Origin: Candidatus Nomurabacteria bacterium | GTDB taxonomy: Bacteria; Patescibacteriota; Minisyncoccia; Phycocordibacterales; UBA9973 | Assembly (NCBI GenBank): GCA_023267435.1 | Contig: JAHFNH010000002.1 | Coordinates: 88,706-152,705, forward strand | DNA: 64,000 nt | Direction of reading: 5' to 3' | Part shown: positions 61 to 63,967 of the stretch, piece after piece | Position numbering within the stretch: the stretch's first letter is position 1 | How the letters are laid out: each line of letters starts with the position of its first letter | Made by a program: the position numbers and the translations under genes | Notes under the pieces: model-generated | Database searches by the model: none | Told to the model about the DNA's origin: nothing | The model's input: only the letters and a program-made list of their open reading frames with translations

Positions 61-498
61 TTTCCTTCCAATTTGATAAATCAGTTTACCAAAAGTGCCA
101 AAAGTAAATCTGGCATCTAGGGCAATAAATTCAGAATGTTCATTGTATATAACATTTATCAATTCAAAACTCCCATGTATATAAGGAGATTCTTCACTGA
201 AAATATTTTTTGCCCTGATAAACTTATCAGTCGGTTCTACAATTCTTGCATTTAATATTTCATGATTAATAAATGTATGAGTCCCCTGTGTTCCCTTAGT
301 AGGACGTTCAAACCATAAAGACAAAACAGTATTTGTAACTTTGAGAAAGAAGAGGTAATCAATAGCGTCATAATATAGCTTGTTTGGAACTAAACAAAAT
401 TCTATACTAGTTTGCTTTTTTGTAAAATCATCATGAATACTGTACACAAGTAAGGAATATTCAGAGTTTTCTGATAGTTTTAGAATTTTTGTTTCCAT
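58..498 (-). CDS. Hypothetical protein (146 aa)
   Basis: ORF track; preceded on minus strand by TTGACT -35 of bidirectional promoter module at 558..589; terminator at 26..60. Confidence 0.55.
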   Translation of the reverse strand: METKILKLSENSEYSLLVYSIHDDFTKKQTSIEFCLVPNKLYYDAIDYLFFLKVTNTVLSLWFERPTKGTQGTHTFINHEILNARIVEPTDKFIRAKNIFSEESPYIHGSFELINVIYNEHSEFIALDARFTFGTFGKLIYQIGRK

Positions 499-557
499 TT
501 TATAGAGCTAAAATTGTTTAAGGACTACGTTTATTTACTTTAAAACTACCAAGAAAT

Positions 558-3041: not shown

Positions 3042-4178
3042 TTAAATTACAACTCTAGGCAAAAGCGGACTGATACGAGTGGTAATTTCATAGTTAATTG
3101 TATCGATATGAGAGGCCATTTCTTCAACTGATATTTTCTCCTTTCCTTGTGCTCCAATAATCACAACCTCATCTTCAGCCCTAACATTTGATAAATGACT
3201 CACATCTACTACAAGCATATTCATCATAACTCTGCCCAATATTTTACAGCGCGTTCCGCCAATTAACACAAAACCTTTATTGGAAAAACCTCGATCAAAA
3301 CCATCAGCATAACCTTGCGGTATCACTGCTATTTTTGTCACTGAATAAGTCATGAAGGTCAATCCATAACCGATAGTGTACCCTTCTGGTAAAATTTTTA
3401 CTTGAGCTATCTTTGTCTTCCAAGAAAGAACTGGTTTTAGTTCAATTTTATTTTTATATAAATATTCAATTTGAGTAGAAGGCCACAATCCATAAGCACC
3501 GACACCAAGCCGAACAATAGAATTTATGCCTTGATTTTTCTCATAAACCAAAAGCCCTGAAGTTGCCGAAATATGAGTATCTAATTTTTTAAAGCCAAAT
3601 TTTTGCGCAAGTTTCAAAGCCTCTTCGTATCTTTTAATTTGTTTTTTTGCGTGAGTAAAATTATTTGTATCTTCAATATTTGCAAAGTGTGCATACATGC
3701 CGGTAAGTTTTATAAATCTGGATTTCTTAATCTCTGTAAAAATTTCTCCAAGATCTTCTTTTAAGAATCCTTCTCTTCCCAAATATGCATCCACTGAAAT
3801 ATGAACCTCTTGTTTGATTTTATTTTCACCAGCAACCTTTTCTAAATTTCGCAATTGTTCGATTGAAAAAATAGACAAAATGCAACCCAGTTTTATCGTT
3901 TCTAATAAATCAGTCTTCTGTATATACCCAAAAACAAAAGTTTTTTTATTAGTGACCTTTCGCAGTAATTTTAATTCTTCAATACTATCAACCTGTAAAT
4001 AATCGACATACGGCTCGATAATCTTTGCAACTTGATTTTGCCCATGCCCATAAGCGTTGCCTTTAATAGCCACAGACATTTTAATGCCTTTCTTTGCCAC
4101 ACTTTTTAATTGCTTAATATTATGAATTAAATTTTCTTTAGATAATTCAATATAAGCAAGAGGTAAATTTTTGACCAT
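3042..4178 (-). CDS. alr: Alanine racemase
   Basis: PLP-lysine motif VAIKGNAYGHG and overall alanine racemase architecture. Confidence 0.9.
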   Translation of the reverse strand: MVKNLPLAYIELSKENLIHNIKQLKSVAKKGIKMSVAIKGNAYGHGQNQVAKIIEPYVDYLQVDSIEELKLLRKVTNKKTFVFGYIQKTDLLETIKLGCILSIFSIEQLRNLEKVAGENKIKQEVHISVDAYLGREGFLKEDLGEIFTEIKKSRFIKLTGMYAHFANIEDTNNFTHAKKQIKRYEEALKLAQKFGFKKLDTHISATSGLLVYEKNQGINSIVRLGVGAYGLWPSTQIEYLYKNKIELKPVLSWKTKIAQVKILPEGYTIGYGLTFMTYSVTKIAVIPQGYADGFDRGFSNKGFVLIGGTRCKILGRVMMNMLVVDVSHLSNVRAEDEVVIIGAQGKEKISVEEMASHIDTINYEITTRISPLLPRVVI

Positions 4179-61569: not shown

Positions 61570-62049
61570 ATGTTAAATAATAAAAGAAAATCGTTTTTTG
61601 AGAGATTAACAGGAAGTGTTCGTGCTGACGAAGAACAGGAGCAAGAGGAACAGACAAAAAGAGTGTCAGTGCGAGGAGGTCAAAAAATTCCTAGCAACTG
61701 GATGGAAGAAGAAGTTGAAGAAGCTGAGCTCACTGTGGATGTGTATCAGACACCTACAGACATAATTGTGCAGACAATGGTCGCTGGAGTAAAGCCTGAA
61801 GATTTAGAACTCACCATCGCTCGCGATATGATCACTATCCGAGGCAAGCGCGAAGAATCTCGCACAATAGACGAAGATAATTATTTTACAAAAGAACTTT
61901 ATTGGGGTACATTCTCTCGAACGATACTCCTTCCCCAAGAAGTCGACCCCGAAGAAGCTGAAGCGACAGAAAAACACGGTTTACTCACTATAAAGCTTCC
62001 AAAAATAGACAAAGAGAAAAAAACAAGCGTAAAAGTGAAATCTATATAA
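61570..62049 (+). CDS. Hsp20/alpha-crystallin family small heat-shock protein
   Basis: ACD core (…LTVDVYQTPTDIIVQTMVAGVKPEDLELTI…GLLTIKLPK). Confidence 0.88.
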   Translation: MLNNKRKSFFERLTGSVRADEEQEQEEQTKRVSVRGGQKIPSNWMEEEVEEAELTVDVYQTPTDIIVQTMVAGVKPEDLELTIARDMITIRGKREESRTIDEDNYFTKELYWGTFSRTILLPQEVDPEEAEATEKHGLLTIKLPKIDKEKKTSVKVKSI

Positions 62050-62056
62050 CATAAAA

Positions 62057-62283
62057 TAAAAACCCCACCAACTATGTTGATGGGGTTGCCTCTGCGATAG
62101 AGCACAGGTCTAAGCCGATTTAGCCATAAAATCACAAACAGGACAAAATCGGGTCTTTGATCGCGTTCAATGTTTCCCTTGAGAGCGAGAACGCCATTAG
62201 CAATAAGGGGTAACTGTCCAAGTCGTAGAGTTCACTCACGACTATGCTGATCCGTTACATCGATTTACCAGCCCCCATAGATT
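62057..62283 (-). ncRNA. Candidate ~220-nt small RNA: minus-strand promoter from module C (TTGACA-17-TAATCT), ORF-free and GC-elevated, ending at the hairpin + U-run at 62063..62085
   Basis: Promoter and terminator are both oriented for the minus strand; no ORF longer than 21 codons. Confidence 0.4.
62063..62085. terminator. Hairpin (ccccaccaactatgttgatgggg); a U-run follows only on the minus strand
   Basis: 10-bp stem with one mismatch. Confidence 0.65.
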
Positions 62284-62295
62284 AGCATAATTAAC

Positions 62296-62324
62296 TTGAC
62301 TTGTCAATATTTTTATGCTAGTAT
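62296..62324. promoter_or_regulatory. Bidirectional promoter module copy C: TTGACttGTCAA, TGcTAGTAT extended -10 toward gene 62425..62787
   Basis: Same architecture and spacer sequence as modules A and B. Confidence 0.6.
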
Positions 62325-62424
62325 CAGTTTAGATTGAATTTGTTGGATTTTTATCCGTTAAATTAATAAACCCGATATATATTCCCTCAACTTATTTTAT
62401 TTAACCTTTTAAAACTTAAGAAAC

Positions 62425-62787
62425 ATGAAATTTAAAGATATTAATTTTAACTTCGACAAACTTAGGGAAAATTTCCTTTCTTTATTAAAAGAAGAAGTAT
62501 CTCCCCTTTTTGAGAATGCTGTTCAAGATGAACAAAGTAAAGCGGACGATTTTATTAATTACGACATTATTTGGTCCTTCACTGCTAAAAATAAAAGTCG
62601 TGAAGTTACAATAGATTGCACTAAAAACAAAGGAGTGGCTGTTGGTTTTGATAGAGAAAACTCTGATATTTATTACTGTTCTAAAAGCATGAGCGTACTG
62701 GAATTTCAAAGAGTAATTCCTGACATAAAAGCATATCTAAAAAATGGCAAGGTTAATTATGACAAATTTGAAAAACAGGAATTGTAA
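62425..62787 (+). CDS. Hypothetical protein (120 aa)
   Basis: ORF downstream of module C. Confidence 0.55.
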   Translation: MKFKDINFNFDKLRENFLSLLKEEVSPLFENAVQDEQSKADDFINYDIIWSFTAKNKSREVTIDCTKNKGVAVGFDRENSDIYYCSKSMSVLEFQRVIPDIKAYLKNGKVNYDKFEKQEL

Positions 62788-62805
62788 AAATTAAATCTGT
62801 TTTTA

Positions 62806-62837
62806 AAAGCACTGAATCAATCAGTGCTTTTTTAATT
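62806..62837. terminator. Bidirectional terminator (agcactgaatcaatcagtgct) between convergent genes
   Basis: Hairpin plus T-run. Confidence 0.7.
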
Positions 62838-63221
62838 ATCTGCGTGATTTGAAAGGGCTTTTTTTACAATTTTTATAAATTCTTCAGCCTCAATTGATTT
62901 TGGTATGCATCCCAACACCCCCAGCTCTTTTACTGCTTTTTCTTCTTCAATTGATAAATCTACATTAGTTAAGAAAATAATTGGAATATTAGAAGTTTCT
63001 TTTTCCTCTTTTAGTAAACTGGAAGTTTTTATACCATCCATCACAGGCATGTTTATATCCATCAAGATAAGATCTGGTTGAAAGCGTCGTGCTATTTCTC
63101 GTCCCTCATTGCCATCCTTTCCATATAAAACCTCAAATCCAGCAGAAGCTAATTTGGAGCCGAAGAACCGACGATTTATCTCATCTTCATCAACAAGGAG
63201 AATGTGAATTTTTTTATCCAT
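62832..63221 (-). CDS. Stand-alone response-regulator receiver (CheY-like) protein
   Basis: ILLVDEDE…PDLILMDINMPVMDG REC motifs; start set to MDKKIHILLVDED. Confidence 0.8.
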   Translation of the reverse strand: MDKKIHILLVDEDEINRRFFGSKLASAGFEVLYGKDGNEGREIARRFQPDLILMDINMPVMDGIKTSSLLKEEKETSNIPIIFLTNVDLSIEEEKAVKELGVLGCIPKSIEAEEFIKIVKKALSNHADN

Positions 63222-63304
63222 ATTTTTATTATAACAATAAAATTTTAATATGCGAAATAAATTTGCTTTTTCTTGCACACTTTATGTGTTAGATTATTAA
63301 ATAA

Positions 63305-63376
63305 GTCTTCGTAGTTAAATGGATATAACGACTCCGTCCTAAGGAGTAGTTGCAGGTTCGATTCCTGCCGAGGACA
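63305..63376 (+). tRNA. trnR: tRNA-Arg (anticodon CCU)
   Basis: Hand fold: acceptor GTCTTCG/CGAGGAC, anticodon loop GTCCTAA, T-arm GCAGG-TTCGATT-CCTGC. Confidence 0.8.
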
Positions 63377-63473
63377 CAAGAGAAATAAACTGCTTTATTT
63401 CGAGCAGAAATCGAAAAGCTTTTCGTTCTCTGATGAAATCAGAGCGAAAAGGTATACTGTTCCTGTAAGGAAA

Positions 63474-63493
63474 GATTCCTGCCGAGGACACAA
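63474..63493 (+). repeat. 20-bp exact direct repeat of the tRNA-Arg 3' end (gattcctgccgaggacacaa), ~95 bp downstream of the tRNA
   Basis: Identical to 63359..63378. Confidence 0.8.
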
Positions 63494-63536
63494 ATTTAAA
63501 ATTGGCTTTTTATAAGTCTTATGCTAAAATACCATT

Positions 63537-63797
63537 ATGGATCCTGAATCAAAGCAATTACTTGAAAATACATACGCATTATCCGAGGAGAATAATAAAA
63601 TGCTTCACAGCATGAGACGTGCGCAAAAAATCGCATCTTTTATGCGTGTAATGTATTGGATAGTTATTATTGCCATCACTTTTGGATCTTATTATTTCTT
63701 GCAACCATATGTGACGCAATTGCAGAAATTTATGCAGGATTCCGGTGCTAGTATTGATCAATTAAAAAATATAGGTAATTATTTACCTAAAAAATAA
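63537..63797 (+). CDS. Small membrane protein (86 aa)
   Basis: One TM helix; ORF only. Confidence 0.45.
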   Translation: MDPESKQLLENTYALSEENNKMLHSMRRAQKIASFMRVMYWIVIIAITFGSYYFLQPYVTQLQKFMQDSGASIDQLKNIGNYLPKK

Positions 63798-63880
63798 ACA
63801 CGCAAGCCGAGATGACTGTTTTGGTTGATAACGCCAAATAAAGAAAATAAGTTAAAAAGTTTTGAAAATAAAATAAACAT

Positions 63881-63953
63881 GCCGAGATAGCTCAGTTGGT
63901 AGAGCGCTCCCCTGAAGAGGGATAGGTCCCCAGTTCGACCCTGGGTCTCGGCA
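63881..63953 (+). tRNA. trnF: tRNA-Phe (anticodon GAA)
   Basis: Hand fold: GCCGAGATAGCTCAGTTGGTAGAGC…, anticodon loop CTGAAGA, T-arm CCCAG-TTCGACC-CTGGG. Confidence 0.88.
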
Positions 63954-63967
63954 CATAAAAACAATAA

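Follow-up and report, generated by a model that had tools for sequence, protein, structure and literature searches.

A 114-bp insertion at the 3' end of a tRNA-Arg(CCU) gene, probably a member of a conserved family of small structured units in Patescibacteria

In a stretch of 64,000 nucleotides (nt) from a Candidatus Nomurabacteria bacterium (contig JAHFNH010000002.1, positions 88,706 to 152,705; hereafter the window), the gene for tRNA-Arg(CCU) is followed by a second copy of its own 3' end, and the two copies are separated by a hairpin-rich spacer. The spacer and one copy of the repeat make up a 114-bp unit, which is very probably an inserted member of a conserved structured family. As an overall explanation, a small, non-coding and non-autonomous element, belonging to a structured family of ~95–200 nt found at the 3' ends of Patescibacteria tRNA genes, has in our estimate about an even chance of being correct. 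A family of small hairpin-folded elements behind many Patescibacteria tRNA genes is apparently undescribed: the full-text literature search returned general background and no description of such units.

The tRNA gene itself is intact, and the calls of ARAGORN and the Rfam tRNA model end at 63376/63377 (Rfam match 63305–63376, 62.6 bits; Table 1). The 20-mer GATTCCTGCCGAGGACACAA, which contains its 3' end, occurs exactly twice in the window, at 63360–63379 and 63474–63493, with no third copy in the 64 kb even when three mismatches were tolerated, and none of 100 dinucleotide-preserving shuffles contained any match. A first-pass annotation of this DNA had reported the exact duplication at 63474..63493 and a hairpin-rich spacer of ~95 bp, and both statements were confirmed, the spacer measuring 94 nt (63380–63473) and the region folding with z = -3.5 as RNA (63378–63493) and z = -5.05 as DNA (63350–63493). 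The repeat starts at G57 of the T loop and ends 2–3 nt beyond the discriminator base, whereas in the other families described below it begins at A58–U60 or C56. This geometry is of the attachment-site (att) type, with the tRNA rebuilt and a displaced T-loop-to-3'-end copy at the far junction. We read copy 2 as the tRNA's former 3' end, which was displaced and is still attached to the sequence that originally followed it. Equivalent second copies have decayed in L092, L054, L080, L025, L059, and L077 (L numbers designate comparison loci) with the element bodies intact, so the second copy fits a displaced fragment of the target and not a functional part.

The insertion itself could be seen by comparison with a close relative, L104, reached through homologues of the 86-aa open reading frame (ORF) downstream of the unit. 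Its tRNA-Arg(CCU) is identical to that of the window (72/72), the upstream promoter region also matches, and directly 3' of the tRNA comes ...AAAATTAAAATTGGCTTTTTT...GCTAAAATA...ATGGATCCTGAA, with no insert. This flank aligned with the window sequence that follows repeat copy 2 (score 45; 0/2000 shuffles as high) and did not align with the 94-nt spacer (score 12, p = 0.84). Because L104 has the identical tRNA and flanks without the insert, positions 63380–63493 (equivalently 63360–63473) are a clean 114-bp insertion. In a second synteny group, about 12 genomes have a convergent NrdH-like gene whose stop codon lies within ~5 nt of the end of this tRNA, and at exactly that junction L015, L025, L092, and L095/L097 have a homologous spacer and a second copy of the tRNA end. 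The 114-bp unit is therefore dispensable, as relatives with an identical tRNA do without it. Filled and empty sites interleave on a tree of the NrdH-like neighbour, which is a 77-aa protein and gives a poorly resolved tree. The comparison of related genomes between the repeats, which the first-pass annotation had proposed, thus yielded an empty site in L104 and a similar small spacer elsewhere; of its two suggestions for the locus, a very small insert is borne out by the empty site, whereas a remnant of a lost island is at odds with the conserved size, the covarying helices, and the lack of any viral or plasmid match described below.

Spacers homologous to that of the window and placed behind the same tRNA, here named family A, were found in at least six other Patescibacteria assemblies (L015, L025, L031 with two units, L092, L095, and L097). 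An alignment of seven copies (A1: the window, L015, L025, the two tandem units of L031, L092, and L095, to which L097 is identical) showed a mean column identity across genomes of 83%, with 96–98% of the cells paired versus 93–95% in shuffles, and nine cells changed on both sides of a pair versus 2.5–2.7 expected, a number reached in none of 500 shuffles. The covariance model built on A1 scored the window copy at 112.7 bits and also found copies behind tRNA-Val(GAC) in L061 and L054 (48.6 and 47.3 bits, E ~1e-11). When these were added to family A (alignment A4), 16 of the 30 pairs were changed on both sides and 96.1% of the cells were paired, versus 81.4% in shuffles; none of 500 shuffles was as high on any of five measures, and slid controls gave at most 6 both-side pairs, although A4 was fitted to the structure of the model and these numbers are somewhat inflated, the hairpins being plain in the raw sequences.

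The predicted structure consists of five helices within the spacer (P1 to P5, Table 1) plus one formed with the tRNA end (P0). P1 is invariant in family A, and its stem shows covariation once the tRNA-Val copies and family C, described below, are included. P2 reads GAGCAG/CTGTTC in the window versus GTGCAGG/CCYGCG in other members, with two pairs changed on both sides, and is the weakest helix (81–88% of cells paired). P3 also covaries, from GCTTTTCC/GGAAAAGC in the family to CTTTTCG/CGAAAAG in the window, and at P4 each genome has its own different perfect hairpin. P5 keeps a GTA loop on stems as different as TTCCT/AGGAA, CGGCC/GGTCG, CGGC/GCCG, CGGT/ACCG, and CGAT/ATCG, with 4/4 pairs changed on both sides across members and 97–100% of the cells paired. 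Finally, P0 pairs the tRNA end GGACAC(AC) with GTGTGTCC; it is missing in the window copy, and both P0 and a T-like helix formed with the second copy are paired in 95–100% of the cells. The internal P2 and this T-like helix both fit the data, P2 covarying but with A·C mismatches and the T-like helix being invariant. Judged by the compensatory changes in P2, P3, P4, and P5, the spacer is a conserved structured unit and not a scar. No credible ORF was found in its 94 nt, nor any further copy of it in the window.

The 21-mer of P1, GAAATAAACTGCTTTATTTCG, was also found verbatim elsewhere, at 486–506 (-) of L093, 3953–3973 (-) of L094, 1210–1230 (-) of L096, and 235–255 (+) of L098. In the first two it lies within a structured insert of ~90 nt that sits in a duplicated tRNA-Leu 5' fragment, with the real tRNA-Leu downstream of it; in L096 it stands between tRNA genes, beside a copy of a tRNA 3' end, and in L098 at the stop codon of a small zinc-ribbon ORF. 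Rfam had no family for any of these four contexts. In addition, L061 (77–130, +) and L068 (~3950–3999, -) present, directly 3' of the tRNA, an equivalent of P1, AAAGCGCC-CTGC-GGCGCTTT, followed by T7. By its sequence this looks like a canonical intrinsic terminator, in which case the rest of the insert would lie beyond the transcript end.

A further property of the spacer is a segment complementary to the host tRNA. The stretch TCGAGCAGAAATCGAA at 63400–63415, compared with TCG-GCAGGAATCGAA, is complementary to 63354–63365 at 11/12 positions, and the local score of the spacer against the reverse complement of the tRNA was 20, versus 13.0 +/- 2.0 in the null (p ~0.009). In families A and C such a segment is complementary to the T loop, the T stem, and the acceptor 3' strand of the unit's own tRNA, and it follows the host: GTGTCC...GCAGGAAGCGAA for tRNA-Arg(CCU), CAGGGTTCGAA for tRNA-Val, GGAGAGG...GGAGGGATTCGAA for tRNA-Ser(GCT), and AAGGGATGAGAA for the tRNA-Arg(TCG) with T stem CCCTC. 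P0 likewise covaries between the Arg and Val hosts. At one position of the L021 tRNA the 5' strand makes a C·A mismatch; the segment complements the 3' strand perfectly there, which identifies it as a pairing partner and not as a copy of the 5' strand.

Such duplications extend beyond tRNA-Arg(CCU). Among 220 tRNAs in the fetched Patescibacteria loci, 24 had their last 16 nt copied 58–250 nt downstream, outside other tRNAs, a frequency estimate that is biased by the loci having been fetched with a tRNA-Arg pattern. The hosts comprise five Arg isoacceptors, Ser, Phe, His, Pro, Val, and Ala, and for tRNA-Phe, tRNA-His, tRNA-Pro, and tRNA-Ala the direct 3'-end copies come with other spacer families. 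The trailers of these 24 tRNAs resemble the antisense of the adjoining tRNA 3' end more closely than do the trailers of the remaining tRNAs (median score 14 versus 10, Mann–Whitney p = 8e-7). Tandem units were present in L031 and L076.

A second family, family C, is related to family A but has a different conserved core, with the same layout and the same CTGC-loop hairpin. It was found in L021, L037, L072 (two units), L050 (two units), L080, and L069, behind Arg-gcg, Arg-ccg, Arg-tcg, and Ser-gct, each with matched segments. Its core, ...CGAAAG-NNC-GGAGCG-(hairpin)-CGUGAG-GNN-GGGGUCGAG..., has invariant purine-rich internal loops and a small 3-bp helix that covaries (GUC/GAC, GGC/GCC, GGC/GCU, and GAC/GUC), so that, as far as their sequences tell, family C units look like structured RNA in their own right. 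The two units of L072, which stand behind different tRNA-Arg genes sharing the T arm, are 95% identical to each other, versus 73–88% to units in other genomes.

Partial tRNA copies with palindromic or two-hairpin inserts placed exactly between TTC and GATT of the T loop were also observed, in L040 (5262–5360, +), downstream of tRNA-Arg(CCU) in both L059 and L077, and in L076 (2160–2320, +), one example being GGTTC[CCTGCCTGCCGGCAGGCAGG]GATTCC. The partial copy of L040 keeps the acceptor 5' strand and the anticodon arm. The position of these inserts suggests that the T loop may be a general insertion hotspot in these genomes.

In the explanation that we favour, that of a small non-autonomous element, insertion would take place at the T loop, with the tRNA rebuilt and its displaced 3' end left as the downstream repeat. 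Like integrative elements that target tRNAs, it would carry a tRNA segment of its own, reaching from T loop to 3' end. Its entry would be of the Campbell type, through recombination that is either site-specific or based on short homology, with catalysis provided by an enzyme encoded elsewhere. As a single strand, its inverted and direct tRNA-derived segments could fold into a duplex resembling the tRNA gene, and this folded duplex would be the form recognised, as is the case of the integron attC or the folded attP of phage CTX. Copies could then spread between tRNA genes with a common 3' end and be lost precisely through recombination between the flanking repeats. Mobility is favoured by the tandem units, by the closeness of the two L072 units, by the interleaved filled and empty sites, and by second copies that decay beside intact element bodies. 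That a recombinase acts in this way on a folded site is put forward tentatively, and we regard it as doubtful.

Several observations weigh against a mobile element. Neither an integrase motif scan nor phmmer with a Xer-like query detected an integrase in the window or in any Patescibacteria locus, and neither the 64-kb window nor the 8 kb around each element yielded a recombinase of any kind, in a search made with one query on partial genomes. An autonomous parent was not seen, nor was a circular or free form, and the sequence just left of copy 2 (…CGAGA or …CCGA) lacks the inverted core site that a classical tyrosine-integrase attP should have. A single ancient insertion, lost precisely time and again through the flanking repeats, could also explain the patchy distribution, and the weak resolution of the 77-aa neighbour tree, the inflation of the A4 figures, and the biased sampling of loci count on the same side. 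In addition, conserved unpaired bases and loop motifs, such as the AAAG/GGAG/UGAG internal loops of family C, favour a functional RNA. As to the site-specific integration proposed in the first-pass annotation, the att-type geometry and the empty sites speak for it and the lack of an integrase in the window or near some two dozen analogous inserts speaks against it.

A different way of accounting for the matched segments, possible but in our view unlikely, is that these units are undescribed very small mobile elements or selfish structured RNAs in which a conserved scaffold bears "guides" complementary to a chosen tRNA at its T loop, its T stem, and the 3' strand of its acceptor. T-loop targeting could then be programmable, by pairing or by target mimicry, with related scaffolds colonising Arg, Val, Ser, and other tRNAs, and the catalyst could be a trans-acting enzyme or the RNA itself.

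We consider it rather improbable that the unit is primarily a functional non-coding RNA co-transcribed with the tRNA, for which mobility would be secondary or absent. Its 5' segment and a tRNA-type 3' strand, either its own or that of the second copy, would form a minihelix mimicking the acceptor and T arms, in which a conserved structured domain replaces the T loop; such an RNA could serve as a processing signal for RNase P or RNase Z, as a cis trailer controlling maturation, or as a decoy drawing a binding factor away from the 3' half of the tRNA. The covarying helices and the highly conserved unpaired nucleotides agree with this, as do the internal loops of family C, which are typical of RNA tertiary motifs, and its covarying 3-bp helix. 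Moreover, the family A element is more conserved in its nucleotides than the neighbouring protein would predict (73–86% amino-acid identity), it is always in the orientation of the tRNA, directly behind it and before the next promoter, and wobble pairs are somewhat commoner on the tRNA-sense strand. However, the element is dispensable, being absent in close relatives with an identical tRNA, and a functional RNA leaves unexplained both the exact direct repeat and the decay of the second copy in several genomes. Related cores behind unrelated tRNAs with matched segments would still require a transfer mechanism, the terminator-like first hairpin of L061 and L068 would end transcription before the remainder of the element, and no match to Rfam was obtained. 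Both readings, mobile element and RNA, can be true if the cis-acting structure of the mobile element is an RNA.

A decayed remnant, in which attL lies beside attR after deletion of a prophage or integrative island, seems very improbable. The geometry of the repeat is exactly that of tRNA-integrating elements, and enterobacterial phages do carry fragments of tRNA-Arg 3' ends. However, the same spacer size and sequence recur in at least six independent assemblies with compensatory changes and no neutral decay. No larger element with matching ends was found: scanning IMG/VR with the P1 21-mer gave no match, and in blastn of 63340–63500 against phages and plasmids, a search that the first-pass annotation had recommended for the spacer, the tRNA part alone matched. 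In the GTDB tRNA loci and the JGI loci with the P1 motif, second copies were all at most ~250 nt downstream, and integrase and compositional anomaly were both absent in the searches.

Equally improbable is a degenerate second tRNA, derived from a tandem duplication that lost its 5' part, which the first-pass annotation had named as the finding that would overturn integration. At some other loci such a history is plain, as the second unit of L040 keeps the acceptor 5' strand, the anticodon arm, and a T arm bearing a palindromic insert, and the second tRNA of L087 is truncated; moreover, the 5' segments of the elements resemble acceptor and T-stem 5' strands, a resemblance that arises because they are complementary to the 3' strands. 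Against this, aligning the spacer of the window with the 55 leading nucleotides of the tRNA revealed no resemblance (score 12 versus 13.2 +/- 2.3 in the null), ARAGORN and the Rfam tRNA model call one gene only, and the matching segment has the complement of the T loop (AATCGAA) and not a copy. The segment of L021 complements the 3' strand perfectly where the tRNA's own 5' strand mismatches, and independent duplications could not place one conserved core behind unrelated tRNAs. Finally, a chance match or assembly artefact, for which the sole argument is that the source is a metagenome-assembled genome (MAG), is hardly conceivable given the result of the 100 shuffles, the homologous units in independent GTDB and JGI assemblies, and the identity of L095 and L097.

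Other identities were considered and rejected. In Rfam 15 nothing but tRNA passed the gathering threshold in the window region and ten related loci; the best other match was far below threshold, and the YrlA model scored only 14.8 bits (E = 3). The motifs CTGATGA and CGAAA, present in the spacer, recall a hammerhead or other known ribozyme, but Rfam at permissive thresholds gave tRNA only. When viral contigs were scanned for an attP, the tRNA 17-mer hit nothing but unrelated phage genes of high GC and tRNAs of jumbo phages. A T-loop intron or split tRNA would require a splicing endonuclease, which bacteria lack, and here a complete tRNA precedes the unit. Bacterial group I introns in tRNA genes lie in the anticodon loop, have a P3–P9 core and at least ~200 nt, and do not duplicate the exon; this unit stands behind a complete tRNA, has 94 nt, duplicates an exon-like flank, and has no counterpart among the Rfam intron models. 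Inverted repeats are lacking at the ends of the 94-nt unit, and its duplication is 17–28 nt long and variable, which excludes a transposable element of the miniature inverted-repeat type (MITE). A 2.1-kb candidate for a full-length element in L068 turned out to be ordinary genes (a histidine kinase and a 180-aa ORF), with the second repeat absent. The unit is thus filed apart from integrase islands, cis-mobilizable elements (CIMEs), MITEs, integrons, and Rfam families, because for each of them a defining feature was looked for and not found, in the case of integrons within the partial genome sequences searched.

The window has a GC content of 30–41% and encodes, among others, TsaD, a short ValRS, a PrsW-like protease, and Hsp20; the 114-bp unit shows no GC or compositional anomaly. 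The stand-alone CheY-like gene and the small membrane protein noted in the first-pass annotation were located beside the unit (Table 1). They are ordinary syntenic neighbours, present in relatives without the insert. Homologues of the CheY-like protein carry the name Candidatus Liptonbacteria or come from Patescibacteria MAGs. The genome belongs to the Candidate Phyla Radiation. Synteny followed through this gene was uninformative, as a 77%-identical homologue (P0002) lies among other genes and the neighbourhood in L002 is different. A Logan contig with an identical CheY-like gene (L001, from SRR14366756) has its positions 1–127 corresponding to window ~63348–63221 and ends in the tRNA-Arg at ~63348, just before the repeat; this end could mark a branch of the assembly graph, arising where filled and empty sites coexist in that population.

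Relatives show rearranged gene orders around tRNA-Arg(CCU) (L068 1–8000, L101–L103, and window 61570–63954). In L068 and L101–L103, the tRNA-Arg is inverted relative to the pair formed by the membrane ORF and tRNA-Phe, and in L101 and L102 it also abuts the NrdH-like gene, absent from the window neighbourhood. The breakpoints coincide with the tRNA-Arg, and L068 has the 5' part of an L061-type insert with no second repeat copy. In addition, a second copy of the first 8–9 nt of the tRNA-Phe(GAA) gene, along with the AAAATAAACA before them, lies ~75 nt upstream of it, with GCCGAGAT at 63806–63813 and 63881–63888 (window 63791–63815 versus 63870–63890). The sequence between these copies, ...CTGTTTTGGT.G.TA.ACGC..., is conserved in L099 (2780–2995) and L104 (430–505), and L099 contains three or more repeats of the unit, spread across a run of N. 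This duplication may be a 5'-side counterpart of the 3'-end duplication.

Table 1. Position and description of the features discussed (window coordinates, unless a comparison locus is named)
Feature	Position	Strand	Description
Intact tRNA-Arg(CCU)	63305..63377	+	ARAGORN and Rfam tRNA model; CCA not encoded
Repeat copy 1	63360..63379	+	From T loop G57 to the discriminator, plus CAA; working tRNA 3' end
Spacer, family A element body	63380..63473	+	94 nt; absent at the L104 empty site
Hairpin P1	63382..63401	+	GAAATAAA-CTGC-TTTATTTC; invariant in family A
Antisense segment	63400..63415	+	TCGAGCAGAAATCGAA; inverted copy of T loop, T-stem 3' strand, and start of acceptor strand
Helix P2, 5' strand	63402..63408	+	GAGCAGA; pairs with 63455–63462
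Helix P3	63419..63451	+	CTTTTCG (63419–63425) with CGAAAAG (63445–63451); encloses P4; minimum-free-energy fold
Hairpin P4	63428–63444	+	CTCTGAT-GAA-ATCAGAG; variable
Helix P2, 3' strand	63455..63462	+	T-A-CTGTTC
Hairpin P5	63460..63472	+	TTCCT-GTA-AGGAA; directly before repeat copy 2
Repeat copy 2	63474..63493	+	Exact duplicate of copy 1
Promoter-like site of the 86-aa ORF	63502..63530	+	Original flank; kept in L104 directly after the tRNA
86-aa membrane ORF	63537–63797	+	Downstream of the second repeat copy
CheY-like gene	62832–63221	-	Neighbour of tRNA-Arg
Family C units	L072 759–919, 1071–1241		145–210 nt
Family C units	L050 4962–5131, 5968–6115		145–210 nt
Family C unit	L069 5858–6000	-	145–210 nt

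Transfer RNA genes are classic landing sites of mobile DNA, and a duplicated tRNA 3' end is usually taken to mark an island boundary. In the present case the "island" is a conserved fold of ~100 nt, matched to its tRNA and recurring in tiny genomes with scarce non-coding DNA. If these units are mobile, they may rank among the smallest site-specific elements, with targeting by mimicry of the target or pairing with it being hinted at; if they are functional RNAs, they would form a new class of tRNA-linked RNA in a lineage whose RNA biology is almost unexplored. In either case, island-finding programs that rely on displaced tRNA fragments will misread such loci.

Compared with known systems, the closest in geometry are genomic islands, which regenerate the tRNA and leave a displaced fragment (PMC4383910), and phages such as mycobacteriophage Ms6, whose attB lies in the T loop of a tRNA-Ala gene (PMC1762012). 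As in these tRNA islands and prophages (Islander-type, Ms6), the T loop, a canonical crossover sublocation of such elements, is split, the tRNA rebuilt, a displaced repeat left, and empty sites are found in relatives. Unlike them, the unit has 94 nt and not kilobases, it shows no integrase, cargo, or foreign composition, its body is a conserved fold with a tRNA-complementary segment, and no inverted core site is present at the second junction.

The CIMEs described in the literature on the Streptococcus thermophilus ICESt elements are non-autonomous, flanked by attL and attR, and dependent on a recombinase acting in trans, and they are kilobase-scale deletion derivatives of identifiable integrative and conjugative elements (ICEs). 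The unit would share with them the lack of autonomy, the att flanks, and the trans recombinase, and it differs from them in its ~100 nt, the lack of an identified parent, and its structural constraint. Guide-bearing elements, such as IS200/IS605 with its guide tetranucleotides, IS110 with its bridge RNA, and group II introns with their exon- and intron-binding sites (EBS/IBS), come with a known enzyme, encoded within or beside them, and produce either no repeat or one of 2 nt. The units resemble them in a conserved scaffold bearing target-complementary segments that differ with the target, and depart from them in the long repeat and in that no enzyme was found. Among RNAs linked to tRNA trailers or to tRNA processing are the E. 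coli 3'ETS-leuZ (an external transcribed spacer), the t-elements of plant mitochondria, and the bacterial Y RNAs of the YrlA type; like these, the unit is structured, lies with or next to a tRNA, and could mimic the acceptor and T arms for processing enzymes, whereas none of them is known to have a duplicated tRNA 3' end at its flank, to vary between genomes as a clean insertion, or to carry a segment matched to the host tRNA.

Finally, the integrases of integrons recombine single-stranded with double-stranded partners (PMC4792948), and the unit has, in its sequence and predicted fold, much in common with the integron attC and the attP of CTX. No integron integrase or Xer was found nearby in the partial genome sequences searched, no full GTTRRRY core is seen (the T loop GTTCGAT agrees with it at 6/7 positions, and the repeat boundary does not fall between G and TT), the repeat is of 17–28 nt and not ~7, and the target is the T loop of a tRNA. 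On the other side, attC and the CTX attP share with the unit a layout of core, inverted copy, variable structured centre, and direct copy, segments that could fold on one strand into a duplex resembling the target, a structure kept over sequence, a size of 60–200 nt, and tandem arrays without ORFs. In its layout, the unit corresponds to an integron cassette consisting of the attC site alone.

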